IMG/VR virus record: IMGVR_UViG_3300037512_001384
Coordinates: 6,442-70,441 of that record
DNA: 64,000 bases
Source of the DNA: a virus
Reading direction: 5' to 3' (one strand)
Part shown: positions 6,689 through 39,004 of the stretch, piece after piece
How the letters are laid out: each line of letters opens with the position of its first letter
Position numbering within the stretch: the first letter of the stretch is position 1
The notes under the pieces: model-generated
Seen by the model: the letters and a program-made list of their open reading frames with translations, nothing else
What the model was told of the DNA's origin: nothing
The model's database searches: none
Position numbers and translations under genes: made by a program

Positions 6689-6691
6689 TAC

Positions 6692-20736: not shown

Positions 20737-20770
20737 CATATACGGCCCGGAGAAAAACAATATCATTCTA

Positions 20771-21745
20771 ATGTATCGAAAAAAGAAACCGGCAGGTTTT
20801 GATGAACGTCTTCAGTGGTCTATCAATTTGTTGAAGAAAGCAGAAAAACTCGCTTTGCAATATGATCCTGATGACGGATTCTATTTAGCCTTCTCAGCAG
20901 GCAAGGATTCCCAAGCATTATATCACATCGCCAAACTTGCAGGTGTCAAGTTTCAGGCTCACATGAACTTTACGAGTATTGACCCTCCAGAGGTTATTCG
21001 CTTCTGTCGCGAACATTATCCTGATGTCATAACTCATGCACCCGAGGACAGCATCTACAATATTGCCGTAAACGGGAAATATCTGCTGCCTTCACGTATC
21101 ATTAGATGGTGCTGTGCCATTCTTAAAGAGACTGGAGGTGCCGGTACGGTCTGTCTTACAGGTGTACGCAGACAGGAAAGCATCAGACGCTCCAAACGTA
21201 ACAGCGTTGAAGTTAGCAACAGCTCCTTCTCCGGGGACCTCGATGCCTTCGAGACGTGGAGAAAAGAGAAGATTGCCAAGAAGATTCAGCATCTCAACCA
21301 GGACCAATTCAGTGAACAAGACGAGGAACAAATCAGATGTATCGGCGGCAAGGATAAAATCATTGTCAATCCGATAATAGACTGGTCTGAGTCTGATGTC
21401 TGGTATTTTCTCAACGAAGTTGTGAAAGTGCCTCACTGCTCGCTATATGACAGAGGATATAAACGTATCGGATGTATCTGCTGTCCTATGGCAAATTATA
21501 AGCAGAAACTCATCGAATTGGCGGATTACCCCCATGTCAAGCGCAACTGGATAAATGCCATCAAGCGGATACGCGAGCAGGGTATCGCAAAGAATATCCT
21601 GACAGAGAACTATTTCGGCAATGGTACGGAAGACGAGATATGTGAGAACATCTTCCAATGGTGGATCAGCGGGAAATCCTATGACGAATGGTATGCTGAG
21701 ACATTCCTTCAGCAAAGGATTGATTTTGGAGAGGAACAACAATAG
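20771..21745 (+). CDS. PAPS-reductase-family PP-loop ATPase with C-terminal Cys cluster (IbrA/DUF3440-like)
   Basis: PP-loop AFSAGKDSQAL; C-terminal RIGCICCPMA; sits directly upstream of the flanked MTase. Confidence 0.65.
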   Translation: MYRKKKPAGFDERLQWSINLLKKAEKLALQYDPDDGFYLAFSAGKDSQALYHIAKLAGVKFQAHMNFTSIDPPEVIRFCREHYPDVITHAPEDSIYNIAVNGKYLLPSRIIRWCCAILKETGGAGTVCLTGVRRQESIRRSKRNSVEVSNSSFSGDLDAFETWRKEKIAKKIQHLNQDQFSEQDEEQIRCIGGKDKIIVNPIIDWSESDVWYFLNEVVKVPHCSLYDRGYKRIGCICCPMANYKQKLIELADYPHVKRNWINAIKRIREQGIAKNILTENYFGNGTEDEICENIFQWWISGKSYDEWYAETFLQQRIDFGEEQQ

Positions 21746-21771
21746 AATGATATTGTAACCGGCAGTAGCAA

Positions 21772-21789
21772 ACAATATGTGGGTATTGT
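21772..21789. repeat. left inverted repeat flanking MTase A (ACAATATGTGGGTATTGT)
   Basis: 17/18 match to the reverse complement of 22468-22485 (13-bp perfect core ATGTGGGTATTGT). Confidence 0.55.
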
Positions 21790-21798: not shown

Positions 21799-22455
21799 TC
21801 AGAATAATTCGAGTTGTGTGATTGTGGTGCCGTCTTGCAATTTGGTCTCTCCGAGGCATTCCTCCCTGAACCGCTCTTCCTGGAGGTCATAGTATTCTTT
21901 GCTTATCTCACAAGCGTAGAAGTCAAACCCCATCTTATAGGCAGCGATGCGGCTTGAACCACTTCCAAGATGGCTGTCGAATATCTTGTCACCCGGCTTT
22001 GCGAAGGTCTTTAGCAGATAGGCGTATAGTTCTATTGGTTTACAGGTGGGATGCCATACAACCTTGTCGATGTGACCGCCTCGGTTGGATATTGTGATCA
22101 GTTTGGCTGGTTTATCAAATGACGTCCAGGCAAACTCACATTGACTGAAGTTCTCCCATACCTGCTGCTTATCCCAGATGACAAAGCAACGGCAAGGAGG
22201 TAAGGGAAAGTAGTTACCTCCCCAGATAATCTGGTTCTTGCTGACGCGGAATAACTCCTTCCAATATTCTGTGGGGGGTGCAACATCCCAACTCATATCA
22301 TGGCGGTTGAGGGTGCGATTCTTAAGTTTCCCGCTCCCTTGAACAGAGGATTTCTTGAGCTGATACGGCGGGTCCACTATCGCAAGGTCAAAGAATGCGT
22401 CTGGAAGCGTCTTCATATAGGCTAAGCAGTCTGTATTGAACACTTCGCTAACCAT
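21799..22455 (-). CDS. N6-adenine/N4-cytosine DNA methyltransferase (beta class), MTase A
   Basis: DLAIVDPPYQ (motif IV), VWHPTCKP, FDSHLGSGSSRIAAYKMG (motif I); 218 aa; whole gene bracketed by inverted repeats. Confidence 0.8.
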   Translation of the reverse strand: MVSEVFNTDCLAYMKTLPDAFFDLAIVDPPYQLKKSSVQGSGKLKNRTLNRHDMSWDVAPPTEYWKELFRVSKNQIIWGGNYFPLPPCRCFVIWDKQQVWENFSQCEFAWTSFDKPAKLITISNRGGHIDKVVWHPTCKPIELYAYLLKTFAKPGDKIFDSHLGSGSSRIAAYKMGFDFYACEISKEYYDLQEERFREECLGETKLQDGTTITQLELF

Positions 22456-22467: not shown

Positions 22468-22485
22468 ACAATACCCACATAATGT
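22468..22485. repeat. right inverted repeat flanking MTase A (ACAATACCCACATAATGT)
   Basis: Lies in the 31-bp gap between the divergent start codons of MTase A and MTase B. Confidence 0.55.
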
Positions 22486-25668: not shown

Positions 25669-26619
25669 ATGGCACGATTGAAGAAAGCAGAGAGGGAACG
25701 TAGGGAGAAAGAGAGGATACACCGCGAGACTGACTGTATCAGACGTAAGGTCGTGGGTGATTTCTTTATCAGCTTCTCACGTCATATACGTCCTTGGCTC
25801 CTTGGTATGGCGGAACGGTATATCGAGAGAGGTATATACCCGATGCTGGCGCAGTCTATCCTGCCTTCCTATTACGAGGACAAGAATGACAAGGAGATAG
25901 CTGCTTTCGCGTCCCTGTTGCTGGACCCCGAATCAGAGTTTGACAGGATCCAGGCGTTCCGCGAGATGATGGGGGAGCATCCGTTTCTTTGGTTTGGTAA
26001 AAGGGATTATGTCATACTCTCTACCGGTGCCAATCAGAACAAACTGATAGGCGGCGTCCCGGGATGGAAGATAGCCAGGCTGATGGAGAAGCTATGGCAG
26101 CGAGGACGTATGGACGCTCAGGAAGGTGACGGTACATACTATGTCCTTACACCTATCATGGTGACACTGAATGTGAAGTACCTCAACTGGCTTCCGGAGG
26201 ATGCCGTACTTGATATGATAGGTGACTGCATTCCCAAGAAAGAGAGTCTTTATCGAATAAGGCTCGCATTGCTCGTTCTTTTGACGCCTGACGGCATCGG
26301 TCAGGATGTGTGGTCAGTTGAACCGGAACGTCTGAGATGTCCACTCTCAACCAAAATAACACCGTTCCTTGAAACGTGGTTTCCCGACTATACGAGATAC
26401 GGTACAAGGGAAGAGGCTATTGAGCTGTTCGACATGCCTCATCATTATGATTTCTTCTATGCTTATCTGGCTTACATGGAGATAGGCAAAAGAAAACCCC
26501 GCGAGTGCAGCAGGCTCGCCACTACATACCGACGATGGTATGACCGTGGCGATGATAAATACAGACCTGCTGTCTGGCGGGAAATAATGGACAGGGTGGA
26601 ACAACAAGACCTTGCTTAG
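25669..26619 (+). CDS. hypothetical protein
   Basis: 316-aa ORF, last gene of the plus-strand block, followed by a bidirectional terminator. Confidence 0.5.
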   Translation: MARLKKAERERREKERIHRETDCIRRKVVGDFFISFSRHIRPWLLGMAERYIERGIYPMLAQSILPSYYEDKNDKEIAAFASLLLDPESEFDRIQAFREMMGEHPFLWFGKRDYVILSTGANQNKLIGGVPGWKIARLMEKLWQRGRMDAQEGDGTYYVLTPIMVTLNVKYLNWLPEDAVLDMIGDCIPKKESLYRIRLALLVLLTPDGIGQDVWSVEPERLRCPLSTKITPFLETWFPDYTRYGTREEAIELFDMPHHYDFFYAYLAYMEIGKRKPRECSRLATTYRRWYDRGDDKYRPAVWREIMDRVEQQDLA

Positions 26620-26627
26620 TCTTATCG

Positions 26628-26667
26628 TGTGGGGAGTAGCTGTCATGCTGCTCCCCACTTTTTTTTG
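26628..26667. terminator. rho-independent terminator between convergent genes
   Basis: GTGGGGAG...CTCCCCAC stem followed by TTTTTTTT. Confidence 0.7.
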
Positions 26668-27510
26668 TTATGTGCCGGTGAAGAACCCCATACCGCTCAA
26701 GTCGAGATTATCGGCATCCACGCAGATGTAACGTGATGTCATGTTCTCGTTCTTGTTGTGGTTCATCAGGGCGCAGATGACGGCACGCGGCACACCGCGC
26801 AGAGTCAGGTTGGTGGCGAAGGATCTCCGGGCCGTATGACTCCCGACATACTCGTACTTGGGTCGCGTCTGCGTCTTACCGTGATAGAATATCTTGGTTT
26901 CCTGACTGATACCGCATCGGCGACAGATACGTTTGATGACATCGTTATAAACGGCTCTGTTATGTTCGCCGGTGGGCTTGTACTGCAGGTAACGCATGAG
27001 GTTGCGATGTATCGGTATGGAGCTCTCCACCTTCGTCTTCTGACTCACATAACACAGTCTGCCGTCAATGATGTTATGCTCGGTGAATGACTTGACATCG
27101 GACGTCCTGGCACCGCAGTAGCACTCGATGAGGAAAGCCGCCTTGATGTCCCGTTCCGTGTCATTATGGGGAACATATCGTTCGATACGCTCTATCTCCT
27201 CTTCCGTGAGATAGACGTTCTGTGACGGCACTCTCTTAGCCTTCAATTCCTTCCCGGGATTCTTACAGGGGAATAAATTCTCATCCAGATAAGCGGAAAG
27301 GAAAGCCTTCAATACGGCGAGATAGGTACATGCCGTATTACCGGCTACGTTGTCACAGATATTATCCCTCATCTCGGACAGGTTAAGCGTCGTGAGGTCG
27401 CTCCACTGCACCTCCTGAACGCCTATCGCATCACGCATATACCGAAGGATATGCGCATAGCTGGGTTGTCTTCTGACAAACTCCTGCTCAAAACTTAAAA
27501 TTCCGTTCAT
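26668..27510 (-). CDS. small tyrosine site-specific recombinase (Xer/invertase-sized, 280 aa)
   Basis: C-terminal catalytic region HTARRSFATNL...RGVPRAVICALMNHNKNENMTSRYI (R...HxxR...Y). No large N-terminal arm-binding domain. Confidence 0.8.
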   Translation of the reverse strand: MNGILSFEQEFVRRQPSYAHILRYMRDAIGVQEVQWSDLTTLNLSEMRDNICDNVAGNTACTYLAVLKAFLSAYLDENLFPCKNPGKELKAKRVPSQNVYLTEEEIERIERYVPHNDTERDIKAAFLIECYCGARTSDVKSFTEHNIIDGRLCYVSQKTKVESSIPIHRNLMRYLQYKPTGEHNRAVYNDVIKRICRRCGISQETKIFYHGKTQTRPKYEYVGSHTARRSFATNLTLRGVPRAVICALMNHNKNENMTSRYICVDADNLDLSGMGFFTGT

Positions 27511-27696
27511 ATCATTTGGTTTTTATTGATTACGACGAGTGAAGCCGGACAATATCCCATCGTCCGGCTCCTGATTAACCTAAATACTTATGTGGTAAAA
27601 ACGTACACACGAAAGTATGTGTAAACATGTTGACCACACTGCTACGACTATGGTAATCTTGCTGCCGGAGGACGTTTTACCGTCATCCGGCATTGT

Positions 27697-29073
27697 TTAC
27701 AGGCGCAGTGTACCCGCTCTTGCCGCCTCACAGCGTCTCAGCACCTCCTTACGGTCACGTATGAGTATCCTGGCTCTCATATCCATACCTTCGCCCGTGG
27801 GCTTATCCAGGACACCTATCGCAACCATCGTGAGGAAGTCCTCGATTGCCATACGGCGTGTAAGAAGGAAGGGGAACATACCGAAGTTACGTGGCGTCAA
27901 CTCTGTCCTGCCTTGTGACTCCTGCAGGAAGAGGCATTCGGGTTGTCCCTTGATAGTAACGGTGACACATGGCGCATCCTCCTGTCCCGGGATGTCAAGC
28001 ACGGAACCGGTAAATGTACCTCTGCAGACAAGGTTGAGCAGTATAGCATCCTCGATGTACTCCGTATCTGCATATCCGCATTGTACGCGCACGTCATCAA
28101 TGCCGTCTGAGTAGAGCATATCACCCTTACCCATCAGGTCCTCGGCACCGGTATGGTCGAGGATGACACGCGAATCAATACCCGATGCGACGCGGAACGC
28201 GATACGTACCGGGAAGTTCGCCTTGATGTTTCCTGTCACGATGGTCGCCGACGGACGTTGCGTGGCTATGATCATGTGGATACCGACGGCACGGGCTTTC
28301 TGTGCGATACGGCATATCATACGCTCCATATCCTTCCCGGCTGTCATAATAAGGTCGGCATACTCGTCTATGACCACGATGCAGTAACGCATGTAGTCTT
28401 CACCGTTGAGCTTGTCATTATACTCTTTGATGTTACGTACTCCTTTCTGCGAGAGAAGGGTGTAACGGTACTCCATGAGGTTAATGACACGCTGCAGGAT
28501 AGCGACAGCATCCTCTGTGGTCGTGGCTATGTCATCGGCGAGATACTTGTGCCAGAGAGGAGCGTAGATGTTGAGCTCAACCTGTTTGGGGTCGATGAGC
28601 ACCAACTGCATCTCTTCCGGTGTGCGCTTGCTCATCAGTGAGAGCAGCAGCATGTTCAGGCATACCGACTTACCTTGACCGGTCGCACCGGCAATAAGCA
28701 GGTGCGGCATCTGTGTGAGGTCACGGATGAAGAGTTCTCCCTGTACCGTCTTGCCTATGGCGCATGGAAGTGCCATCCTGCAGGACTCGTAATCGACATG
28801 ATGCAGAACGCTGTCCATGTGTACTATCTGACGTTGGAAGTTGGGAACCTCAATGCCAATCGTACCGCCTGCGAGCGGTCCCATGATGCGTACCGACTCC
28901 GTACCGACCGCCAAGGCAAACTCATCAGCGAGTCTGCGTACACGTGTCATATTCACACCCATATCCGGTCTGAACTCATACAGGGTGACGCTGGGTCCTT
29001 TCGTGACTCTCCAGCTCAGCGGTTCAATCTTATGAACCCTGAGCACCTGTTCTAACTTGTAAGTGTAATCCAT
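27697..29073 (-). CDS. FtsK/SpoIIIE-family DNA translocase (motor + gamma-like domain)
   Basis: Walker A IAGATGQGKS; Walker B IVVIDEYADL; IATQRPSATIVTGNIKANFPVRIAFRV; C-terminal winged-helix-like EDFLTMVAIGVLDKP. Start MDYTYK is preceded by the conserved array upstream element. Confidence 0.8.
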   Translation of the reverse strand: MDYTYKLEQVLRVHKIEPLSWRVTKGPSVTLYEFRPDMGVNMTRVRRLADEFALAVGTESVRIMGPLAGGTIGIEVPNFQRQIVHMDSVLHHVDYESCRMALPCAIGKTVQGELFIRDLTQMPHLLIAGATGQGKSVCLNMLLLSLMSKRTPEEMQLVLIDPKQVELNIYAPLWHKYLADDIATTTEDAVAILQRVINLMEYRYTLLSQKGVRNIKEYNDKLNGEDYMRYCIVVIDEYADLIMTAGKDMERMICRIAQKARAVGIHMIIATQRPSATIVTGNIKANFPVRIAFRVASGIDSRVILDHTGAEDLMGKGDMLYSDGIDDVRVQCGYADTEYIEDAILLNLVCRGTFTGSVLDIPGQEDAPCVTVTIKGQPECLFLQESQGRTELTPRNFGMFPFLLTRRMAIEDFLTMVAIGVLDKPTGEGMDMRARILIRDRKEVLRRCEAARAGTLRL

Positions 29074-29320
29074 AATGATTGTTTGAGTTATTATTGGCGG
29101 AGCAGCTGATGTCACTCAATCAGCTCCAGGACGTGGGATTTGTCCTTTGGAAAAGTGATGCGCACCCATGTCAATGAGTACGCATCTGTTTAACTCTTTA
29201 AATACTACAACTATGCGCCTCACGGCGTTCGTATGTAATAATTAGCACAAAGATAAGGATTCGCCCTTATCCTTGTATGGCGATGTTAATCCTTAACATA
29301 GTTAATGTACGGATTTAACA

Positions 29321-29593
29321 TTAGTAGTGTTGCTGAACGAGGTTGTCGATAGAATCAAGCACCTCATCCACGTCACGTATCACTCCCATCTTACCGAGAT
29401 CTTCCACGATACATTTAAGTCTGACGTAGTTCTTAACCCCCACACGTGTGGCTCCTACGCCGTTTTTTACGAATGACGGGCGTATGGAATGGAAGTGCTT
29501 ACGGAAGAACTGTTCAAGCGACATGAAGCCCACTGTCTTGCTCTTCTGTTCCCTGTTGCTGAAATACTCAGCGGCTAATTTCCTCAGTCTCAT
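29321..29593 (-). CDS. hypothetical protein (array gene)
   Basis: 90-aa ORF with an upstream element variant. Confidence 0.45.
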   Translation of the reverse strand: MRLRKLAAEYFSNREQKSKTVGFMSLEQFFRKHFHSIRPSFVKNGVGATRVGVKNYVRLKCIVEDLGKMGVIRDVDEVLDSIDNLVQQHY

Positions 29594-29844
29594 AGTTACT
29601 TCTCAATTAGTTAAGTTACTACCCTGTTAATTACTGACCGCCTGCACCGTATGAGCCTTGAAGTGGAATAATGCATCTGCAGGTGTCATAGGAATCGGGG
29701 TTGAAAGTATTTCCTCCTTACCCCGGCGGTACACCCTCCATTGGGTGTACTTCTTCTGGGTTGTTTTCTCTTCTTTCATTGCGAATCATTTTAGTTAGAC
29801 ATAATGGCGATTATAGCTGCGTTTCCACAGCTATAACCTTCTTG

Positions 29845-30435
29845 TTACTCGGCGATGTAATCATTCCAGAGAGCTTGTGCCATGATCTCCGCTGCAATCT
29901 CGTCCTCGGGAAGTTGGTTGAACATATCCAATGTGTTGCCATGAAGATCCTCGTCCCCGGCTTCCAAAACATCTCTAATCTCAGAGATGACATCGAGCAT
30001 ATCATCTTTGAGCTGTTGAAAATCCTCAATAGGATTACCGTCGCTGTCATAACAATGGTCGTTCGGATCATTAAGGTTAAGTAGGATGTCGCCCGTTAAG
30101 TTGATAAAGTGATATTCATGATACCCGGGTACGAACGAATACTCTGTCTTGGCGTACTGTTCGCGCAGTGATTTGAGAATGAATATCAGCTCTTCTACCG
30201 GATGCTGAATAACGTATTCGCCTTCTTCTTGGTAGTCTTCAAAGAGCAGGATGATACCGTTATCGATTGGATTTAGGTCCACACCCTGCAGCAATACCTC
30301 GCCGTCATGGTCGTCAATCATGATAGGTGTCTCGAACGTCCACGCAAATCCCATTTTCTTCATCTCCTTGCGGATGTCAGCGATTACCTGCTCTTTGAGC
30401 TCCTTTACTTTTTCGTTGTAGTTTTTTGTTTCCAT
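29845..30435 (-). CDS. hypothetical acidic protein (array gene)
   Basis: 196-aa ORF with the conserved upstream element. Confidence 0.5.
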   Translation of the reverse strand: METKNYNEKVKELKEQVIADIRKEMKKMGFAWTFETPIMIDDHDGEVLLQGVDLNPIDNGIILLFEDYQEEGEYVIQHPVEELIFILKSLREQYAKTEYSFVPGYHEYHFINLTGDILLNLNDPNDHCYDSDGNPIEDFQQLKDDMLDVISEIRDVLEAGDEDLHGNTLDMFNQLPEDEIAAEIMAQALWNDYIAE

Positions 30436-30497
30436 AATTGATGTTTTTTAGGTTAAACGTGGTTCCCTGCAAGCATTTCCGTACTTGCAGGAATAAA

Positions 30498-30977
30498 TCA
30501 CCAATGATTCGCAGTACGTATGTGTTTCATTGTGAATGTAGCGGTCTCTAATGAGCCCTTGAACTTGATGCGGGTAAAGAATGTCACACCCAATTCTCCT
30601 GTGTTGGACAGTTCAGTCTCGACCTTTGTGATTTTGGATGTGTGATTCTTTCCGTCATCAGGGCAATACCATTTGACGGTATCGTTGATGCTGTAGGGAA
30701 TGACAATCAATCCGTTCGGTTTCTCACCCAGATCCACGAAGAAATCAGTCCATCGGTCGTGGCAATTTGCGTTCTTTTCAGGAAGGTATGGCCAGGCGTG
30801 ACTTGCATTCATCTTGTCATTGGTTATAAACCCACAGTCATATTTGCCGGGAGTATAGTTCTCCTTCTGTGAGTAGGCGGGCTCAAAATCACATAGGTAA
30901 ATCCGTCCTTTGCGATAGTAACCCTTGATGTCCTGTTTGCACAAAAACATGTGCCCTTTAATAATCCTCGGTTCCAT
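30498..30977 (-). CDS. hypothetical protein (array gene)
   Basis: 159-aa ORF with the conserved upstream element. Confidence 0.5.
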   Translation of the reverse strand: MEPRIIKGHMFLCKQDIKGYYRKGRIYLCDFEPAYSQKENYTPGKYDCGFITNDKMNASHAWPYLPEKNANCHDRWTDFFVDLGEKPNGLIVIPYSINDTVKWYCPDDGKNHTSKITKVETELSNTGELGVTFFTRIKFKGSLETATFTMKHIRTANHW

Positions 30978-31203
30978 TGTAGTATGATTTAAGAGTTAAA
31001 CAATTGTTGCCGTCACAAAAACTTTCATATCTTTGTGACGTGGAAACTAAAACGGATGTTCAGTCCGTATGTCGGGACTTACCTAAACCCAAGACTTATA
31101 GTCAGGGTGAAGTGCCACACTCTCAGGGAAATTGTAATGCGCATAATTACAATATTTAAAGAGTTAGTTTCCGTCCTCAGCTTAGGGCGCATGAGGGGCC
31201 TAA

Positions 31204-31238
31204 ATGGATGTCTCGCTGGCATCCATTCTTTTTTTATG
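31204..31238 (+). terminator. hairpin + T-run (plus-strand-oriented terminator-like structure inside the minus-strand array)
   Basis: ATGGATG...CATCCAT stem followed by TCTTTTTTT. Confidence 0.35.
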
Positions 31239-31665
31239 ACCTGATTACACGGGCGTAGGAGTGAGTCGGATAGAATATTTCCTCTGCATTCCATGCGCTC
31301 GCCAAATCGTGCAAGTCCTCGAAGCAATCCACGTAATCCGAACCGGCATCGTACATCTCCAATATCTCCTTGTCGGATATTTCATTAAACTCTTTCTCGT
31401 CAAGGATGTCAGCATTGCTATCCAAGATATAGATGCGCTCACGAGATAATGGTTCCTTCATCAGACAACAGAGTAATGCGTCATTGAGCAGATTGGGGAG
31501 TTCTTCCTCGAAATAACCATCCGCGTAATTATCGATTACCTTTCCCTTGAGATTGCAGATGTCAAGGCGGTACGTGTTGTCTTCAGCTTTGACGCTTAGC
31601 TTATAACCGCGTTCTTTTAATTGTTCGTTGGCGAACTTCAGCAGTTTCTTGTTTTCTTTTTCCAT
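31234..31665 (-). CDS. hypothetical protein (array gene)
   Basis: 143-aa ORF with the conserved upstream element. Confidence 0.5.
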   Translation of the reverse strand: MEKENKKLLKFANEQLKERGYKLSVKAEDNTYRLDICNLKGKVIDNYADGYFEEELPNLLNDALLCCLMKEPLSRERIYILDSNADILDEKEFNEISDKEILEMYDAGSDYVDCFEDLHDLASAWNAEEIFYPTHSYARVIRS

Positions 31666-31730
31666 AATAGTGTAGTGTTAGAGTTAAACAATAGCTGATG
31701 CTGTCAGTGTCATCCGGCAGCATCGTAGAT

Positions 31731-32030
31731 TCATATCCAGCTCACGAAGTCAATCTCCGTCTCTTCAGTGATGTTGATAGGCTCTTCGGTGACAATCGTA
31801 CCGCAGAAGTTGACCATGATACCGGCACCTTCCTTCTGAACTGTTACGGGTGTACTCCAGTCCCCGTCATCATTGTGTCTGGTGTGATACATGTGTTTGC
31901 CTTCGGGGATTGAGTTCGGATCAAGGCGCATTCCGTCAAAGAACTGCACTTCCCGGTTCTTATCTTCTCCTACTACATGAATCTCCAGCTTGTCGCAGTA
32001 ATCGAGATGTTCGTTGTAATTGTAAAGCAT
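31731..32030 (-). CDS. hypothetical protein (array gene)
   Basis: 99-aa ORF with the conserved upstream element. Confidence 0.5.
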   Translation of the reverse strand: MLYNYNEHLDYCDKLEIHVVGEDKNREVQFFDGMRLDPNSIPEGKHMYHTRHNDDGDWSTPVTVQKEGAGIMVNFCGTIVTEEPINITEETEIDFVSWI

Positions 32031-32094
32031 AATAATATAATTTTGAGTTAAACATATTTGCTTTGGTGTCGAATATCACTCCGACACCAAACAA

Positions 32095-32706
32095 TCAGAA
32101 CGGAAGAGGAATGTCCTCGATGATTTCATTCATAACCTCTTTCTCGAACTTCTCCAACTCCTCGATGTAGTCATAGTTGCCTTCGTCTTCATCCTTGCCG
32201 CCCAACCTCTTCTCAAATTCAACAGCTTTCTTGATGAAGTAAGCGGCTTTATCTCTGGAATCCAACCAAGGGTAACTTCCGCTTTTCTCAATCTTGGCGA
32301 TGTCTTCAGCGAGGTCTGCTACCAGATGTACGGCATTCTCCATCTCCTTGTAGGTGTATGTACGCACTTCGTCTTCTCCCTTGACCTCTATCTCAGGCAG
32401 ATAATCCATGATAAAATCAATGTGCGAATAGTGTACATCACCGAGTCCAATCTCAATGTCTGACACAGAACCGTCATGCAGATTGACTGACATACGGATG
32501 TTACCTTTGGACTCCACCCATATTTTCATCACATCTACGTCGCCTACATACTCGCAATCGTCAATGCTGGCTGTTATGATGGGGTATTCTATACCGGAAT
32601 CCTTCCATGTAAAACTGCCTCCCAGCTTTTCCAGGCACTTGCGCAATTCCCTTTGTTCCTTTACGGCTATTTCAGCATACGCTTTGTAAAATGATTCATG
32701 TTTCAT
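32095..32706 (-). CDS. hypothetical protein (array gene)
   Basis: 203-aa ORF with the conserved upstream element. Confidence 0.5.
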   Translation of the reverse strand: MKHESFYKAYAEIAVKEQRELRKCLEKLGGSFTWKDSGIEYPIITASIDDCEYVGDVDVMKIWVESKGNIRMSVNLHDGSVSDIEIGLGDVHYSHIDFIMDYLPEIEVKGEDEVRTYTYKEMENAVHLVADLAEDIAKIEKSGSYPWLDSRDKAAYFIKKAVEFEKRLGGKDEDEGNYDYIEELEKFEKEVMNEIIEDIPLPF

Positions 32707-32749
32707 AATTGTAGTTTTAAGAGTTAGTTACATGGTGGAGAGATGCATT

Positions 32750-33250
32750 TTACTGCATCATCTCCTTCGGTATCAGACAGGTTGGGTTATCATTGATGTA
32801 TCTTATGATTCGCTCTATTGTAACCCAGCCGAGGCTTGCCACTCGGTCATGCCAATCATCTGCATCATCCGGATTATCCGTGTATATTATGCCCGGATTG
32901 ACGTAGTGGTAGCACATAAGATGCTCAGAGCCGTCATTTTCTTTCCGTATGTAGATACAACGGATAGAACGGTGGGTAAATTCATCTTCGAGAAGGTCAT
33001 AAACGTTATCGTCAATGTCACTCATGGAGATTTCAGGATTGACGAGACTCTTCATCTTGATAACTTCACATCCGGCTCTCTCATTGAAGGACAATACGTG
33101 AGTTGCCTCTGCTCCGTCCAAATCCAATCCGAACTCCTTGATGTCACCGGGCGTGGGCTTATGTCCTTTCTCGCGAACATACTCCATGAGTTGTTTAACC
33201 ACCTCATCCGCAGCTCTGTTCATTGATGTCATTAAGTCACTTGCTTTCAT
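32750..33250 (-). CDS. hypothetical protein (array gene)
   Basis: Start MKASDLMTS placed at the conserved upstream element (track extends to 33337). Confidence 0.45.
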   Translation of the reverse strand: MKASDLMTSMNRAADEVVKQLMEYVREKGHKPTPGDIKEFGLDLDGAEATHVLSFNERAGCEVIKMKSLVNPEISMSDIDDNVYDLLEDEFTHRSIRCIYIRKENDGSEHLMCYHYVNPGIIYTDNPDDADDWHDRVASLGWVTIERIIRYINDNPTCLIPKEMMQ

Positions 33251-33308
33251 AATCGTATTTATTTGAGTTAAGTTGTATCCTTGCGCCCGGTTAAGAGCGC
33301 ATGGATAG

Positions 33309-33854
33309 TCAGATCTCGTAGAAGGGAATCTGGTCATCGGCTGTCATCCTTCCTGTAAGCAGTTGGAAGAAGACCGTCTCATAACGTCTATGCTCAGGAC
33401 CTTCGGAATTTCTCATACAATCGAAGTATTTCTCCATTGCGGCTCGTCTGGTCATTACCTCTGTGTCGTTGTAGCAGATGACAGTTACCTGCTCTTCGAG
33501 TTTACTTTCAGCTAAACCGCTGAGAGCAGATGCTTTTGGTTCACTGAGTTCCTTGTCAAGCGTAGCCCATACGTCTATGAGAGATTCACCGAGATAGTTT
33601 AGAAGGCTGTCGCCAATCACCCATTCGGTCTCCTTGCCGGATACTTCCGTAGATACCTCGAATCGTAGTTCTCCGTCAGAATCAGCCATAACGGAATGAC
33701 ACAATTCCTTGGCGCATACCTCACCTTCAAGGAAGAAGATTTGTACGGGCTTCTTGAACTTATGGCAAACTCCCATACCCAGGCGGTTGAGCATATCACT
33801 AATCATCTGGCGTTTGGCGGCCTCAATCATCGTTTCATAAACTTGTCTTTGCAT
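33309..33854 (-). CDS. hypothetical protein (array gene)
   Basis: 181-aa ORF with the conserved upstream element. Confidence 0.5.
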   Translation of the reverse strand: MQRQVYETMIEAAKRQMISDMLNRLGMGVCHKFKKPVQIFFLEGEVCAKELCHSVMADSDGELRFEVSTEVSGKETEWVIGDSLLNYLGESLIDVWATLDKELSEPKASALSGLAESKLEEQVTVICYNDTEVMTRRAAMEKYFDCMRNSEGPEHRRYETVFFQLLTGRMTADDQIPFYEI

Positions 33855-33919
33855 AATTGTAGAGTATTTGAGTTAAACAATTGGTATGTGGCAAGGAAGC
33901 TGCTCGTTGCCACACTGAC

Positions 33920-34126
33920 TTACTTGACCTCATAGTAATCGTCGGGATAACGGCTCATATAGTTGCGAATATCCTCCTCTGTCCAATCATCGGTCATACA
34001 TCCTTTACCCTGAACGTTGGTCCTATATTTGGCTATTACCTTGCCTTTCTCATATACCCTGATGGTGTAAGTCCTGTCATGGTGGTTAGCCTTGATTCTG
34101 TAATTTCTGTCTTTTCTGTTGTACAT
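33920..34126 (-). CDS. hypothetical protein (array gene)
   Basis: Start MYNRKDRNYRI placed at the upstream element. Confidence 0.4.
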   Translation of the reverse strand: MYNRKDRNYRIKANHHDRTYTIRVYEKGKVIAKYRTNVQGKGCMTDDWTEEDIRNYMSRYPDDYYEVK

Positions 34127-34187
34127 AGTTTCGGTTTTAGTTGAACATAGTGACCATTCTATTGTTTCCAATAAAATGGTCCGGGTG

Positions 34188-34544
34188 CTAACTTACATAG
34201 TTACCGCAAGGGGTATCTGTTGTAACGTTGGCAAAACTAAGACGATAATCGGCTGGCTTGCCGTCAAAATACGTGTTGATAGTCTCAAGGATTTCTTCCT
34301 CAGAATGGTCATCCTGATATTGGCTGAAATCGCAGTAGCTGTCATCTACATAGTCTTTGTTCTCTGACATGTGGCGTACAAAATCCTCCAATTTCTCGAT
34401 GAAGAAATCGCACTCCATATTGGCCCAGTAATCCTCATTGTGGTAGATGTAACCGAAGATATGGATAAACTTTACTCCATGCTCTTCATAAATCTGGAAG
34501 AAGTCCAATTCTTCCGGTTTGGTTAATTTCTCGAATTTCTGCAT
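34188..34544 (-). CDS. hypothetical protein (array gene)
   Basis: Start MQKFEKL placed at the upstream element. Confidence 0.45.
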   Translation of the reverse strand: MQKFEKLTKPEELDFFQIYEEHGVKFIHIFGYIYHNEDYWANMECDFFIEKLEDFVRHMSENKDYVDDSYCDFSQYQDDHSEEEILETINTYFDGKPADYRLSFANVTTDTPCGNYVS

Positions 34545-34603
34545 AGCTGTACGTTTTGAGTTAATGGCATCTCCTGTCGGTGTCGCCCGGCAGAAGATGA
34601 TAG

Positions 34604-34834
34604 TCACTTGATCCAATAGAAGGATGCACGTTTGCCTACGATAGCCACCGCGTCAGTTACAAGCCCTCTCGCGTTGCTGATGTCATAGACTTGTCCGAGA
34701 CGCGATTCATACCTCTCGCTCTTGTTGGCTATGAATGTCTCCCAGTACATCTTGTCGATGACCAGCAATCCAAGGTCCATCAGATCTTTTGCGCTACCCG
34801 CAAGATGCAGGTCTTTCTTTGTCAGTTTCTCCAT
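34604..34834 (-). CDS. hypothetical protein (array gene)
   Basis: 76-aa ORF with the upstream element. Confidence 0.4.
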   Translation of the reverse strand: MEKLTKKDLHLAGSAKDLMDLGLLVIDKMYWETFIANKSERYESRLGQVYDISNARGLVTDAVAIVGKRASFYWIK

Positions 34835-34885
34835 AATCTTTTGTTTTGAGTTGGTGGACAGGCGAATGTTATTCCGCCTTATCCT

Positions 34886-35083
34886 TCAGGCGACAATCTC
34901 CAGCTCGTGAGGGAACGCCTCTAAGTCTGAATACTCGTCGGAGCACTGCACAAAATCGCCCTTGAGATTGTCAATGGTGAAGATGCGCGACAAGTCACGG
35001 TTCTCAATGTCAGGATCGTAGAATCTTACCTTAGCGCCAACAGACAATTCCTTTCCGTTGATGTCATACATTTTCTCTTCCAT
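34886..35083 (-). CDS. hypothetical protein (array gene)
   Basis: 65-aa ORF with the upstream element. Confidence 0.4.
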   Translation of the reverse strand: MEEKMYDINGKELSVGAKVRFYDPDIENRDLSRIFTIDNLKGDFVQCSDEYSDLEAFPHELEIVA

Positions 35084-35265
35084 AATTTAGAGTTTAAGAG
35101 TTAGTAGCTCCGTAACCGTCCGTCAAGACCGCTACGGAAATAGTTACGGGCGATAGAAGAAGCGGTGGTCCATTGATACCATGATAACTGAACCGTTGCT
35201 CTGCTCGTGCTCAAAAAAATCCTGATGCAGATATTCTTTGTTAATCTGCTTGCCTCGGAGTTCCG

Positions 35266-36039
35266 TCATGCCGCAATTTTTGAGAAGTGAATCTCTTCCA
35301 GCCTGTACGGTGTGCCGAAGTTGCCCCATGAGCTTGTCTTTACCTCGTACATGATGTGATACATGCCGTTCTTGCTCCGTTCATACTTGTAGCCTATTAT
35401 CGTTCCCTCTGTACGTTCATCAGCGTGACGGTAAAGTTTGACGTAGCATTTCTTGCCAATCTCAAAGCCGGATGCAGGGCGCAAATCTTCAGCGACCAGG
35501 CTCCCGTCCCAAGCTCCAAGATCAACCTTTTCCCATCCCTCACGGAACGCTTTCGGCATACGCTCGATGGTGTCGAACTTGATGTCTTCGGTGGAGGTGA
35601 TGAGCTTGTCCTTGCGGAGCTGCACGAGAAGATTGTTATATACATACTGCTGAATCTCTGTCGGAGCTTTGCAAGCCTCCTTATAGACGGCATAATACTG
35701 AGATGCTATCTGTCTGTTCTCGGAGAGATACTTCAGGTTCTGTCCGAAAGTCAGACCACCCAGATAATCATCGTTGACACGTGACGGATGCGAGTAGTTG
35801 CAGCCCCAATTCTGATAGTGGGATTCCCTGCGGTTCTCCGCATCCCATCTCTTCTTGAGTTCAGGGCGAAAGTCATGCCTCTCGCCATACTTGTCCACGT
35901 CATACTTGGGATAGGTGTATTCAAAATCGCCTACTTTCACTCTGACGCATTCGGTCTCGTGATTCCAATCGTCCTTGACGGTGATGTCCTCGCTCGTTCC
36001 TTTGTCGAGATAATCGAGGATGTTTTCTTTCTTTGCCAT
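35266..36039 (-). CDS. hypothetical protein (array gene)
   Basis: Start MAKKENILDY placed at the upstream element; 258 aa. Confidence 0.5.
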   Translation of the reverse strand: MAKKENILDYLDKGTSEDITVKDDWNHETECVRVKVGDFEYTYPKYDVDKYGERHDFRPELKKRWDAENRRESHYQNWGCNYSHPSRVNDDYLGGLTFGQNLKYLSENRQIASQYYAVYKEACKAPTEIQQYVYNNLLVQLRKDKLITSTEDIKFDTIERMPKAFREGWEKVDLGAWDGSLVAEDLRPASGFEIGKKCYVKLYRHADERTEGTIIGYKYERSKNGMYHIMYEVKTSSWGNFGTPYRLEEIHFSKIAA

Positions 36040-36103
36040 AGTTGTAGTCTTAAGTTGGTTAAACAATATGGCTCCAAGGGAAGATTCTACTCTTCCCTCA
36101 GAT

Positions 36104-36349
36104 TCAGAGCGCCCAGAAGATTTCCTCTTCGTCATCAAAATCCTCCGGGGCCCAATCGGAATCGTATCCCTTTTCGTCTGCAAAATCCGATATAAGTTCG
36201 ATAATAGCATCAATGATTTTACTTCCGTCATGGGTCATACGTAGAGGGCAGCGTTTGTGATCAACATCCACTAAAGCACGCCCTTCTTCCTCTTCTGTCC
36301 ACGTCTTATTGTCGCGGATGTACTGCAACAATTCATCTTTCAGCTCCAT
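36104..36349 (-). CDS. hypothetical acidic protein (array gene)
   Basis: 81-aa ORF. Confidence 0.4.
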   Translation of the reverse strand: MELKDELLQYIRDNKTWTEEEEGRALVDVDHKRCPLRMTHDGSKIIDAIIELISDFADEKGYDSDWAPEDFDDEEEIFWAL

Positions 36350-36361
36350 ATCCGTAAAAGT

Positions 36362-36538
36362 TTAGATGATTCCATTCTCGCGAAATTCGCGTGTCAGTCC
36401 GAATCGTCTGGCCAGCTTTGCGAAGAAGTTGCCGAAATAAGCCAACTCCGAATAGGAGTAGTTGTGGTTTGCAAAATCATACTGCCAGTCGATAGCTTTC
36501 TCTCTGGCGGCAGCTTTTCTTTTCTGATAATCTGTCAT
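36362..36538 (-). CDS. hypothetical small protein (array gene)
   Basis: Start MTDYQKRKAAAREK placed at the upstream element. Confidence 0.3.
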   Translation of the reverse strand: MTDYQKRKAAAREKAIDWQYDFANHNYSYSELAYFGNFFAKLARRFGLTREFRENGII

Positions 36539-36597
36539 AGTCGTGTAGTTTTGGTTAATGGCGCACCATACCGATGTCATCCGATATGATGCATGAC

Positions 36598-36729
36598 TCA
36601 CCGCGTGGGCTGCTTGTGACGTTTCATATCTTCCGCGTGCCAGCATATCTGACATACACCGCCATAGCGGATATACTGCAAATCGGATATCTCCTTTCCG
36701 CAGTTCAGGCATTTGCAAGGTTTACTCAT
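36598..36729 (-). CDS. small zinc-ribbon protein (43 aa)
   Basis: MSKPCKCLNCGKEISDLQYIRYGGVCQICWH with two CxxC pairs; not in the ORF track. Confidence 0.3.
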   Translation of the reverse strand: MSKPCKCLNCGKEISDLQYIRYGGVCQICWHAEDMKRHKQPTR

Positions 36730-37073
36730 GGCTGTGGCTTGCAGTAGATACACTTCACTTCATAATGCTGGCGTGTGAAGAGTTTGAGCAGTGCGTCCGA
36801 ACCCTTGTATGCCATATTCAGCTTAATCTCGTTGATTGTATCTTTCCCGAAGAAATCACTCCCCGAACGCAGGATATTGTTCACGTGATCCTTGTCGGCA
36901 AGGAAGGAATAGAGAGTGCATCGCCACGAACCATCCTCGTTCTGTACTCTATGTACAAAAGCGGCCAGCGCGTTACACTCGTAGATTCCGATAGTGAAAT
37001 CCACATACTTGTCACCCTGTTTCTGCGTGAGCTTGACCTCACCCATCTGATGATTGTACTTTACTTCTAACAT
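36726..37073 (-). CDS. hypothetical protein (array gene)
   Basis: Start MLEVKYNHQMG placed at the upstream element. Confidence 0.45.
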   Translation of the reverse strand: MLEVKYNHQMGEVKLTQKQGDKYVDFTIGIYECNALAAFVHRVQNEDGSWRCTLYSFLADKDHVNNILRSGSDFFGKDTINEIKLNMAYKGSDALLKLFTRQHYEVKCIYCKPQP

Positions 37074-37139
37074 AGTCGTAATATTTTGGTTAAACAATTT
37101 GCGCCCAGAGCGGATGTCATTCCGCTCCAGACTGAAAGG

Positions 37140-37925
37140 TTAATCGCGCTTTACGGCAATAACATCTTCGCAACCCATATCACTCACGCGGAGTCTGATT
37201 CTGAGCAATTTGTATGCTCTGCTGGGAAGGAGGTCATACTCCTCTTCGTTTACGTCCTCCTGATAGGCTACAAGATTATATCTACCGTTTGCGTTGGCGT
37301 TGAAAGCCAGCATGTCGCAGTTATCGGCATCATAGGCGAAACCGATACCCTTCTCTTGTGCGTTCTTCCAAGCATCCTCTACCGCTTTCAGCGCCTCCTT
37401 CTGCTCGTCTGTCAGCATGACCTTACGGACAACTCCTTCATGGACTTTCTCGTTGCCCTCTTCATCGACATACTTGAATGAAGACATTCCGGCACAAATT
37501 TCCTTGTCGATGTAGTAGTCATCGGGGAGGGAATCAGCCTTGAAGTCCCATACATCAGAGGCATTGATATGTCCTTCTATCGTCTGGAAGTCAAACTCAT
37601 GCTCAACTGGCTGGCCGTTCTCTGATGTGAAGTAACGCCATTCGTTATTGAGATTGAGCTGATAAGGCGACAGGGTGTCGGGAGATGCAGGTATATTCTC
37701 GGTGTACGCTTTCATGTTGGGATAGAGCTGGGTATAGTGAATCTTCATGTTTTCACTATCCTTGTCTGTCCTGACGATGAGATGAATGTCATTGTGGATA
37801 GGGTTGCCGTTCTCGTCCTCTTTCTTTGTGAGAATCTGACCGACAACTTGCACCTTACGCAGAGCGCCACCTGTGAATACGAATCCTTCTTTCAGATACA
37901 CACAATAAATGTTTGAATGTGTCAT
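37140..37925 (-). CDS. hypothetical protein (array gene)
   Basis: 261-aa ORF with the upstream element. Confidence 0.5.
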   Translation of the reverse strand: MTHSNIYCVYLKEGFVFTGGALRKVQVVGQILTKKEDENGNPIHNDIHLIVRTDKDSENMKIHYTQLYPNMKAYTENIPASPDTLSPYQLNLNNEWRYFTSENGQPVEHEFDFQTIEGHINASDVWDFKADSLPDDYYIDKEICAGMSSFKYVDEEGNEKVHEGVVRKVMLTDEQKEALKAVEDAWKNAQEKGIGFAYDADNCDMLAFNANANGRYNLVAYQEDVNEEEYDLLPSRAYKLLRIRLRVSDMGCEDVIAVKRD

Positions 37926-38012
37926 AGTTGTAATTTTTTAGAGTTAAACATAATGGTTGCTCCCGCCTGAGTTTTCATACCCAGGCAGGATGATTTGAGT
38001 TTGAACGAATGT

Positions 38013-38246
38013 TCAATAATCCACCTTAATCCCGCATCTCCTGACAACATCCTCTTGCGAACGATGAACCCAGCAGGGATATTTATCACCCTCAGTCCAC
38101 ATTATCAATTCGCCATCGTGCATAGTTCGTTTGTAATCAATATAATGAGCCCTTATAGCTTCTATATGTAACCCATTTTTTTGCAATACCTCAAGAACCT
38201 CATGCACAGAGTTCCTTCGCGTCTCGATGTAATATAGATTATTCAT
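38013..38246 (-). CDS. hypothetical protein (array gene)
   Basis: 77-aa ORF. Confidence 0.4.
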   Translation of the reverse strand: MNNLYYIETRRNSVHEVLEVLQKNGLHIEAIRAHYIDYKRTMHDGELIMWTEGDKYPCWVHRSQEDVVRRCGIKVDY

Positions 38247-38297
38247 AATTATAAGTTTTGGTTTGCGGATTCGGGGATGTCGTTCCCCGGAATCCTG

Positions 38298-38759
38298 TCA
38301 TGCCGCCATCTTCTCCCATTCCTCAATCTGCTCGTATGTCAGCCATTCGGGTTTGAGGTCTTCGGGTATCTTGTTCCAATACTCCTTGACGGCGGCAATA
38401 GTGTCGCGGATGCTACCGCCTATAAAATGCTCATTATGATAGCGGCAGTCCCATTTGTCGTTATCCTCGTTGCCTGACTTGCCGAAATATGCGGCTGCGT
38501 CATCGCTGAGGCGGCTCAGCATCATGTACTCGAACTGAAATCCTTTCATCCTCCGTTCTTTGTCCGTCAGAGGATTGGTGATTTCAAAGTTCTCGATACA
38601 AACATCCGGCTCTCCGTCTTGTTCCGTAGGAGGACACAGGCGGTAAAGTGCATTTGGATTGTCGTTGTTGCAGTCCACGTAATACCTGCCATATTCGTCC
38701 TTATACAGAGTTCCTTCCATTCGGTGCTCTCCGATTCTCGTCACTTTGATTTTTTCCAT
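38298..38759 (-). CDS. hypothetical protein (array gene)
   Basis: 153-aa ORF. Confidence 0.45.
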   Translation of the reverse strand: MEKIKVTRIGEHRMEGTLYKDEYGRYYVDCNNDNPNALYRLCPPTEQDGEPDVCIENFEITNPLTDKERRMKGFQFEYMMLSRLSDDAAAYFGKSGNEDNDKWDCRYHNEHFIGGSIRDTIAAVKEYWNKIPEDLKPEWLTYEQIEEWEKMAA

Positions 38760-38944
38760 ATCAGATACAGTTTTCTTAATAATCCATAGACTTGCATTCT
38801 CATTAGATTTTCAAGGCGGTAACGCTCCATGTAGTTAAAGGCGTATGACTTAGCCGTCATGTAGCCGCATCGTCTGTAACGTCTGCCTATACATCTGAGG
38901 AATGCTTTGAACATCACGGGTGAACACGTTGTTTTTTCTTCCAT
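38741..38944 (-). CDS. hypothetical protein (array gene)
   Basis: 67-aa ORF with the upstream element. Confidence 0.35.
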   Translation of the reverse strand: MEEKTTCSPVMFKAFLRCIGRRYRRCGYMTAKSYAFNYMERYRLENLMRMQVYGLLRKLYLIWKKSK

Positions 38945-39004
38945 AGTCTGTAATTTATAGTTAAACAGTTCCGCATGGAGATTTTGCTCTCCACGCAGAT
39001 AATG

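Follow-up and report, generated by a model that had tools for sequence, protein, structure and literature searches.

Phase-variable methylation is known for cellular restriction-modification systems, and inversion in phages is known for tail fibres. Invertible segments (invertons) of viruses have been reported only tentatively, in a 2026 paper (PMC13501310). In the searchable literature we found no account of site-specific inversion by which a phage would switch orphan methylases of its own and a PAPS-reductase-like gene, and no description of phage methylase invertons or of the pair of an FtsK-like gene and a recombinase gene that is treated here. This pair lies in a stretch of 64,000 nucleotides (IMG/VR virus record IMGVR_UViG_3300037512_001384, positions 6,442 to 70,441; hereafter called the window), in which a small tyrosine recombinase of 280 amino acids (aa) is encoded next to an FtsK/SpoIIIE-like ATPase, and in which three segments carrying DNA-modification genes are bounded by inverted pairs of short sites. 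A preliminary description of the window had guessed that such segments invert, and the guess was right: the segments with the PAPS-reductase gene and with the gene for a 218-aa methylase flip independently of each other in near-identical contigs. We consider it probable that the small recombinase is the invertase of all three segments, acting at several sites.

The sites are 18 bp long and have the form ACAWTA-N6-TAWTGT, that is, a half-site, 6 bp, and an inverted half-site; they are named A and A', B and B', and C and C' for the three segments (Table 1). By the gene calls, the 218-aa methylase gene and the PAPS-reductase gene do not have the same orientation in all contigs with an identical recombinase. 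In contig ERZ27257203 k141_5146506 (L006/L010; fetched loci are given by L numbers throughout), segments A and B are both inverted, the flanks and the 15 bp that separate A' from B being unchanged, and in JGI 3300031993 (L007) segment B is inverted; the orientation of the PAPS-reductase gene also differs between L003/L009 and L006/L010. L006/L010 and L007 are 99.9-100 % identical to the window, the inverted segment A itself matching at 100 %, and the flips were thus recent events within one phage population. The half-sites of A and A' show an A/T difference that is exchanged in L006; hence the crossover fell within the 6-bp spacer, in keeping with a tyrosine recombinase. The window has the PAPS-reductase gene in the sense orientation to the operon, the 218-aa methylase gene in the antisense orientation, and the third methylase split; in L006, the PAPS-reductase gene is antisense and the 218-aa methylase gene is sense. 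The ATG of the PAPS-reductase gene (20771) sits in the right half-site, TAATGT, of site A and moves with the segment on inversion, so that a flip separates an intact open reading frame (ORF) from its upstream signals. As for the third segment, simulated inversion at C/C' gives a single ORF of 309 aa in which SPPY is joined to DPFMGSGTT, in frame through the site; this ORF is a complete methylase with motifs IV and I.

Table 1. Features of the locus, in window coordinates except where another locus is named.
Feature	Positions	Strand	Remarks
Small tyrosine recombinase, 280 aa	26668-27510	(-)	Core-binding and catalytic domains; candidate invertase
FtsK/SpoIIIE-like soluble ATPase	27697-29115	(-)	Alpha domain, RecA-like motor, C-terminal winged helix
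Winged-helix DNA-binding domain, C-terminal 97 aa of the ATPase	27700-27990	(-)	Weakly gamma-like
Site A, ACAATA TCATTC TAATGT	20757-20774		Left end of PAPS-reductase inverton
Site A', ACAATA GAATGA TATTGT	21739-21756		Right end of PAPS-reductase inverton
Site B, ACAATA TGTGGG TATTGT	21772-21789		Left end of 218-aa methylase inverton
Site B', ACAATA CCCACA TAATGT	22468-22485		Right end of 218-aa methylase inverton
Site C, ACTTTA TAGGCA TATTAT	6160-6177		Weaker site, inside 215-aa methylase ORF
Site C', ACAATA TGCCTA TAATGC	6690-6707		Partner of C
Lone perfect site, ACAATA CAATTA TAATGT	45493-45510		533 bp upstream of D5-like primase gene
PAPS_reduct-family gene	20771-21745	(+)	Pfam on gene calls; wholly invertible; sense to neighbours in window
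218-aa N6/N4 DNA methylase	21799-22455	(-)	Pfam N6_N4_Mtase; wholly invertible; antisense to neighbours in window
Split beta-class methylase	6041-7108		Pfam on both pieces
Split methylase, N-terminal part (SPPY)	6041-6688	(-)	
Split methylase, C-terminal part (DPFMGSGTT)	6704-7108	(+)	
378-aa tyrosine recombinase	L018 4414-5550	(-)	About 4 kb beyond window position 1, on the opposite strand; integrase candidate
Spacer between FtsK-like and recombinase genes, 186 bp	27511-27696	(-)	Promoter-like box and hairpins
Hairpin just past the FtsK-like stop codon	27664-27691		From the sequence
Palindrome containing promoter-like box TACTTTCG	27604-27623		From the sequence
Hairpin AGCCGGAC..GTCCGGCT (GCCGGAC/GTCCGGC)	27543-27569		From the sequence
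Hairpin with 12-bp stem	26629-26658		Between convergent recombinase and 316-aa genes; terminator scan
TATCTTTG, match to Bacteroidota -7 box TAnnTTTG	29248-29255	(-)	Upstream of FtsK-like gene; putative function

The site search was extended to all loci fetched. With at most one mismatch per site, it gave 44 inverted pairs with exactly reverse-complementary spacers, several of the loci being copies of the same phage; direct pairs were absent, and shuffled sequence yielded no pairs. A motif-free search for any dyad-symmetric 6-6-6 pair gave 52 against 0, and almost all of these were of the ACAWTA type. The same arrangement around PAPS-reductase and methylase genes was found in relatives whose recombinases are 49-60 % identical to that of the window (inverton-bearing loci: L014-17, L022, L023, L026-29, L033, L101, and L102). 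The spacers of these relatives vary (TCTTCC/GGAAGA, TTTTCC/GGAAAA, TCTTTC/GAAAGA, TCTCAC/GTGAGA, and others); despite differing between relatives, they match between the two arms of every inverton. Orientation again differs between related loci (L014 and L015; L026 and L029). Two loci had more elaborate arrangements: in L015 (16873-16945), three different sites are stacked within about 75 bp, and in L102 (16038-16109), there are three tandem left sites with one spacer, so that alternative inversions are possible, as in a shufflon.

As an independent control, 79 IMG/VR loci, each with 10 kb of sequence to either side, were fetched solely via the methylase. Paired sites occurred in one of the 79, which was the sole locus with the small recombinase; the remaining 78 had neither. 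Many of these recombinase-less loci are syntenic phage contigs of about 95-110 kb in which the two methylase genes and the PAPS-reductase gene are co-directional. Over all loci, site pairs were found only where this recombinase clade was present. An exact-site search in IMG/VR returned mostly chance matches or already known contigs. The earlier suggestion that the small recombinase drives the methylase invertons therefore gains from three sides: the inversions are real, the sites are of the tyrosine-recombinase type, and they are confined to loci with the clade.

The ORF and its Pfam match agree with the earlier reading of the protein as a 280-aa tyrosine recombinase without an arm-binding domain. 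Pfam Phage_integrase PF00589 matches residues 100-265 with E = 2e-12 (47.6 bits; gathering cut-off, 27.1), and the PHROG matches are to integrase families. Among 29 homologues, R135, K158, H225, R228, and Y261 never vary, and the conservation of H251 is at least 90 %; judged from this alignment, all catalytic residues are intact. At E <= 1e-10, 639 homologues were found; among the 120 listed, the length is nearly always 275-281 aa, and many lie on contigs of 100-117 kb. The protein aligns to residues 143-351 of a second, 378-aa tyrosine recombinase of the same genome with 26 % identity, and it has no counterpart of about 108 N-terminal residues of the larger protein, that is, no arm-binding extension. 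All NCBIfam Xer equivalogs scored far below their cut-offs (XerA, 37.9 against 220; XerD, 26.9 against 329.6; XerC, 23.6 against 335), and no NCBIfam invertase family matched at E <= 1e-3. The nearest solved relatives are generic, namely the catalytic domains of P2 and HP1 integrases, XerA, IntI4, lambda Int, and XerD. Relatives annotate the homologues as 'integrase'. Homologues are also carried by Dulem virus 40 and by LoVEphage and Bacteroides phage BI-TP1 (gp60; 37-38 % identity); in Dulem virus 40, the 680-aa protein encoded upstream had no FtsK-like motifs when its translation was judged by eye. The preliminary description had called the 280-aa protein the only recognisable recombinase. 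For the window this stands, no other recombinase being found there in the precomputed Pfam matches of the called genes, and for the genome it does not, given the 378-aa protein.

The inversions, the architecture of the sites, the place of the crossover, the co-occurrence, and the conservation of the gene pair are thus shown; the catalysing protein, the on/off consequences, and the biological purpose of the inversions are inferred, as follows. The 280-aa recombinase would bind the ACAWTA half-sites, and would cut and exchange strands inside the 6-bp overlap. The overlaps are specific to each inverton and would have to match, so that each segment would flip independently and would be insulated from the others. 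The units flipped would be the PAPS-reductase gene and the 218-aa methylase gene, each in its entirety (A/A' and B/B', respectively), and the 5' part of the split methylase (C/C'), and three independent flips could give up to eight combinations of DNA-modification genes. Such on/off switching of modification genes may serve as bet-hedging against restriction-type defences of the host.

Several points weigh against this assignment. The catalyst is named from co-occurrence and from the architecture of the sites, the genome also encodes the 378-aa tyrosine recombinase, and Bacteroidales hosts encode many invertases. The on/off reading assumes that the segments are transcribed from the flanking operon. 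No flipped contig was found for inverton C, where the look-up by the 134-aa product was biased to the unflipped state; scans of JGI metagenomes for C junctions, both the flipped one and one shared by the two states, matched no contig at all and are thus uninformative. In ten loci (L013, L021, L024, L025, L030-32, L034, L100, and L443), the recombinase is present and no inverton lies within 10 kb of it, and so inversion is not the sole or the ancestral task of the clade, or its targets lie elsewhere in the genome; in L013, L021, L025, and L030, the other inverted repeats were low-complementarity noise only. Finally, the assignment leaves unexplained why the FtsK-like gene is so tightly conserved as the neighbour of the recombinase gene.

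It could be, instead, that the inversions are made by the 378-aa integrase or by a host invertase, and that the small recombinase does something unrelated. The presence of a second tyrosine recombinase in the genome, and of clade loci without local invertons, would fit such a view. Against it, invertons were found only where the small-recombinase clade is present, and their sites are conserved across phages from metagenome-assembled genomes (MAGs) of more than one Bacteroidales family, so that reliance on one particular host enzyme is hard to reconcile with their distribution. The 378-aa protein itself is encoded in an apparent lysogeny module, and integrases of this size with an N-terminal extension normally use arm sites. 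Phages of the LoVEphage type have a 36-39 % identical homologue of this large integrase and no ACAWTA-type sites within 10 kb of the small recombinase. We regard the involvement of another enzyme as quite improbable.

The claim that the FtsK-like gene and the recombinase gene form a unit held up within the clade. In loci fetched via the recombinase, the FtsK-like gene lies directly upstream of the recombinase gene in L013-17, L021-25, L030-32, and L100-102, and on the downstream side in L034; L026-29, L033, L035-38, L103-104, and the whole LoVEphage group have none within 10 kb. In loci fetched via the FtsK-like protein, the recombinase gene is adjacent in 17 of the 17 with at least 51 % identity and in none of the 63 more distant ones. 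The gap between the two genes ranges from 2 bp (L443) to 1.6 kb (L024). Lineages without an FtsK-like gene within 10 kb of the recombinase still have invertons, whose orientation differs between contigs, and the FtsK-like motor is thus not needed in cis for inversion. In the LoVEphage group, the gene preceding the recombinase is a non-homologous, ParA-like one (BI-TP1 gp59). A universal module of a nucleoside triphosphatase and a recombinase was considered and rejected, as BI-TP1 gp59 is not homologous to the FtsK-like protein and the lineages without an FtsK-like gene have unrelated genes upstream. Functional coupling of the FtsK-like protein to the recombinase is, in our estimation, a tentative proposal with the balance against it.

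The FtsK-like ORF is 472 aa long when read from a GTG; in public gene calls it begins with the ATG at 29073, the likely start, and has 458 aa. Pfam FtsK_SpoIIIE PF01580 (E = 1.2e-49, 169 bits) and FtsK_alpha PF17854 (E = 1.4e-17, 64 bits) match, and the PHROG results are consistent with this. Walker A (GATGQGKS), Walker B (DEY), and a TQRP motif are invariant across the family. The alpha domain begins at residue 13, with no N-terminal membrane domain or linker before it, and the protein therefore corresponds only to the C-terminal alpha-beta-gamma part of FtsK; the match to the NCBIfam FtsK model spans positions 911-1243 of 1355 and ends before gamma. Pfam FtsK_gamma did not match the protein. 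With a profile of the C-terminal 97 aa built for the FtsK-like subgroup that includes the window, the best match in PDB was E. coli FtsK gamma (2j5p) at a marginal E of 0.024, and the XerD-FtsK-gamma fusion 5dcf and 2ius were also listed. The AlphaFold model of this domain is confident (predicted local distance difference test score, 85), and its top Foldseek matches are the winged-helix DNA binders TubR, Sso10a, ArsR, MarR, and SarA, with FtsK gamma not among them. In many family members the last 100 or so residues are variable or absent, and some have a coiled-coil tail instead. By the model, then, the fold of the C-terminal domain is a winged helix, and its homology to FtsK gamma is plausible but weak. 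Of the complete FtsK motor with a gamma-like winged helix that had been described, the motor and the winged-helix fold are borne out, and the gamma similarity is marginal.

The FtsK-like gene is the last gene of an early anti-defence array, which occupies 29.3-45.1 kb of the window. The array (29321-45100, minus strand) has about 30 small genes, including ArdA, LPD11, LPD28, and many of unknown kind, and its gene content varies between strains (L004 and L005 compared with the window). Nearly every intergenic gap of about 60 nucleotides consists of a variable hairpin followed by TGTTTAACTCTTAAA..TACAACT-ATG. The FtsK-like gene had been said to share this upstream element; it carries only the 3' part, AACTCAAA..ATG, and not the rest of the leader, and the recombinase gene carries none of it. 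A complete array leader is found just upstream of the FtsK-like gene in the opposite orientation (about 29190-29240, plus strand), followed by an ATG and only 9 codons; it may be a remnant of an inverted or lost cassette.

The FtsK-like protein may have nothing to do with recombination, being instead a DNA translocase expressed early, for instance for the uptake or clearing of phage DNA, or a protein directed against host defences, with the adjacency reflecting inherited gene order. Its place at the end of the array, with which it shares a leader motif, fits this, as do the recombinase gene's own promoter-like box, the occurrence of invertons without an FtsK-like gene, and the FtsK-like proteins that are common in unrelated phages without such recombinases. 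Moreover, the phage has a second FtsK-like protein in its RecT/RusA module (571-2658, plus strand). This 695-aa protein, encoded directly after RusA and RecT, has an N-terminal PD-(D/E)XK nuclease domain fused to the motor, an unusual fusion of nuclease and translocase within a recombination module; its motor domain shares 27 % identity with that of the 472-aa protein. On the other side, the adjacency persists in every one of the 17 loci while the identity of the recombinase drops to 39 % and the gap varies from 2 bp to 1.6 kb, which exceeds what is usual for unrelated accessory genes, yet is no proof of a functional link. We hold the two genes to be functionally unrelated with a confidence just short of even.

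One further perfect site of the same type, without a partner in the window, lies upstream of the gene for a D5-like primase, in a region of low GC content that separates the divergently oriented anti-defence array and replication genes. Among the 12 IMG/VR loci found via the primase, 8 have an equivalent site (at most one mismatch) upstream of the primase gene, at distances of 405-714 bp, where the background frequency is about one site in 44 kb; the 8 include the contigs of L021 and L024, neither of which has an inverton near the recombinase. The lone sites of relatives have A/T-rich spacers and arms extending to about 9 bp. L351-353 and L360 have no lone site; at the equivalent place in L351-L353, about 450 bp upstream of the primase gene, there are two direct repeats of GCGCTATTGTG, each containing a TATTGT half-site. 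The lineage of the window has ACAATA, and the relatives have ACATTA, in the invertons and the lone site alike, and this shared preference fits a single binding protein for all sites. The lone site coincides with the minimum of the GC skew and with the point of gene divergence; the skew follows gene orientation and thus cannot settle whether the site has an origin or a terminus role. In the window (45550-45610) and in L354-L362, a conserved GGGG(T)ACA/TCAG-CCCC hairpin and then GCCGAGATTTT follow about 40-60 nucleotides after the lone site; the hairpin and GCCGAGATTTT, lying in a low-GC divergent region, may function as a promoter or origin element.

The presence of the lone site points to an additional function, possibly the older one. 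The small recombinase probably acts on this site, or binds it, as well, perhaps for monomerisation or cyclisation of the genome or for regulation, and the FtsK-like motor could assist there as in Xer systems, or could be an unrelated early translocase. A role of the Xer or Cre kind at the lone site is possible, and we would not put it higher than that. In its fuller form, this explanation makes it the primary task of the recombinase to recombine the lone sites of terminal redundancies, or of sister or concatemeric copies of the genome, giving circular monomers, with the FtsK-like motor joining the sites, activating catalysis (as FtsK does for XerD at dif), or both, and it makes the invertons a later co-option; it is compatible with the small recombinase being the invertase. 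It is consistent with the retention of the lone site in two-thirds of the primase-fetched loci, including the two inverton-less ones, with the constant FtsK-like neighbour, with FtsK gamma as the best sequence match of the winged helix in PDB, and with a site centre of 6 bp like that of dif (PMC3025954). Other observations do not fit it. The gamma match is marginal, has no Pfam counterpart, and is not preferred by Foldseek, and the domain is often absent; the recombinase misses the Xer cut-offs widely; several lineages and the LoVEphage group have the recombinase without an FtsK-like gene within 10 kb; the lone site is absent from L351-353 and L360 although the L351 contig carries both genes; and the position of the site, at the skew minimum and gene divergence, is not terminus-like. 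Besides, a phage packaged from concatemers has no obvious need of dimer resolution. On balance we find this explanation doubtful. Still less probable, and unlikely in our judgement, is the complete phage Xer-like machine, in which the soluble FtsK alpha-beta-gamma motor would load on phage DNA and activate the recombinase at a lox/dif-like lone site, so as to monomerise or cyclise the genome, and the enzyme would have been recruited to flip up to four modification cassettes. A last possibility is that the small recombinase is an integrase, for a second or the main attachment site, and that the lone site is attP. The annotation of its relatives and the existence of a single simple site would accord with this. 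A dedicated integrase with an apparent lysogeny module is nevertheless present, and the paired inverted sites around modification genes would be left unexplained; we regard this as highly improbable.

The preliminary description had suggested that the recombination site could lie in the spacer between the two genes. Its length, the GCCGGAC/GTCCGGC hairpin, and the palindrome are all present as described; the real sites, ACAWTA-N6-TAWTGT, lie elsewhere in the genome, and the spacer itself contains no ACAWTA-type site. In the relatives L022 and L101, the palindrome aligns to TAcCTTTG followed by GTTTTTACC, its arms not being conserved, and the counterpart of this box in the window reads TACTTTCG. 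TAnnTTTG is the -7 promoter motif of Bacteroidota. The hairpin has compensatory stem changes and a conserved loop in L022 and L101, and it is thus typical of an RNA or terminator element. Read from these alignments, the spacer probably holds a separate, weak promoter and a 5' structure for the recombinase gene. The palindrome and the hairpin were accordingly rejected as recombination sites: they are unlike the verified sites, the former contains a promoter-like box, and the latter is a compensatory hairpin. A search of Rfam found nothing relevant in 26400-29400. In L014-L017 (P0076 lineage), a 77-aa ORF, absent from the window, lies between the FtsK-like and recombinase genes. As to the terminator proposed after the recombinase stop codon, a hairpin with a 12-bp stem is present there; its T8 tail is on the plus strand only.

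Megablast found no near match to the locus among GenBank phages. It recurs without differences in metagenome contigs, and in the longest of them (ERZ27256849 k141_4620388, 107,074 bp) the window corresponds to positions 34868-98867. The terminase has 49 % identity with its counterparts in LoVEphage, BI-TP1, PV4-TP1, and Dulem virus 40, and so the LoVEphage/BI-TP1 group are distant relatives. Relatives of the small recombinase were found in MAGs of Bacteroidales, Prevotellaceae, and Porphyromonadaceae, and members of the family also occur on contigs of 145-380 kb. The gene for the 378-aa tyrosine recombinase adjoins a gene for a 158-aa protein, an HTH_17 gene, and an endolysin gene; these genes are read as a classical lysogeny module like that of BI-TP1, with the HTH_17 gene and the small genes as the presumed repressor/excisionase set. 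LoVEphage was described as having 'two integrases, a repressor' and as integrated in B. dorei, and its relatives, too, are prophages in an integrated state (PMC8525569). Among the Pfam families on the gene calls of the regions examined, which cover all but about 28 kb of the genome, there was none of the ParA/ParB or Rep kind. The separate integrase module and the occurrence of the family on contigs of 145-380 kb make this an integrating temperate phage of Bacteroidales with a genome of about 107 kb; the phage-plasmid lifestyle that had been suggested as one possibility is not supported, as no finding indicates a plasmid prophage. Integration into the host would be carried out by the 378-aa integrase encoded outside the window. 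The left 46 kb have a GC content of 0.40-0.49; beyond about position 46000, where the replication and structural genes lie, it is higher (0.51-0.55), a difference that points to mosaicism between the halves.

If the small recombinase is indeed the invertase, a widespread clade of Bacteroidales phages of about 105 kb, from rumen and gut, hedges its DNA-modification state, which would bear on host range, on arms races of the restriction type, and on the interpretation of prophage methylases in microbiome epigenomes. If the phage Xer-like machine were real, a heritable and reversible change of modification would determine which restriction, BREX, or similar barriers are crossed. With a 280-aa enzyme, 18-bp sites, and orthogonality defined by the spacer, the compact system could serve as a tool for multiplex recombination, and the FtsK-like neighbour and the lone site together offer a tractable test of Xer-style motor activation outside chromosomes.

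Among described systems, XerCD/dif with FtsK of E. coli resembles the locus in having recombinases without an arm-binding domain, a 6-bp site centre between inverted arms, an FtsK alpha-beta motor with a C-terminal winged helix (encoded adjacently in the phage), and one lone site per genome. It differs in that the phage has one recombinase and not two, scoring 24-27 bits against Xer cut-offs of about 330; in that the phage arms are 6-9 bp, with ATTA/TAAT, and those of dif are 11 bp, with ATAA/TTAT (PMC3025954); in that the phage motor has no membrane anchor and marginal gamma similarity; and in that most of the phage sites are paired in invertons, which is not a Xer feature. Cre/loxP of phage P1 likewise combines a phage-encoded simple tyrosine recombinase, separate from integration, with a short symmetric site and an asymmetric spacer, and a single site could serve cyclisation or monomerisation. 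However, loxP is 13-8-13, as opposed to 6-6-6 (up to 9-6-9) here, P1 is a plasmid prophage whereas this phage has an integrase, and Cre has neither an FtsK partner nor natural invertons. Rci of the R64 shufflon, RecV of C. difficile, and Tsr of Bacteroides are each one recombinase for several independently flipping segments with a shared half-site, and the stacked and tandem sites of L015 and L102 recall the shufflon; here, the enzyme is phage-encoded, and the targets are DNA-modification genes and not pilus, surface, or promoter elements. As in epigenetic invertons or phasevarions (Type I hsdS, S. pneumoniae; PMC7672463, PMC9881135), inversion would change the modification made and give heterogeneous methylation, but there the specificity domains of cellular restriction-modification systems are shuffled, and here the targets are the orphan methylase, PAPS-reductase, and split methylase genes of a phage. 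Gin, Cin, and Hin share phage-encoded programmed inversion; they are serine recombinases, depend on an enhancer and on Fis, and flip tail-fibre genes, in contrast to a tyrosine recombinase at simple sites. The gp60 of LoVEphage/BI-TP1, the 37-38 % homologue, is of similar size and is likewise additional to a larger integrase, but it follows a ParA/Mrp-like ATPase, is tail-to-tail with the large integrase, and has no ACAWTA-type sites within 10 kb. In mechanism, the phage system matches simple tyrosine recombinases (Cre, Xer, Rci, RecV, and Tsr), and in outcome it is akin to epigenetic invertons. The new elements of the present system are that it is phage-encoded, that its targets are orphan methylase and PAPS-reductase genes, and that these are combined with a conserved lone site and a conserved FtsK-like neighbour.

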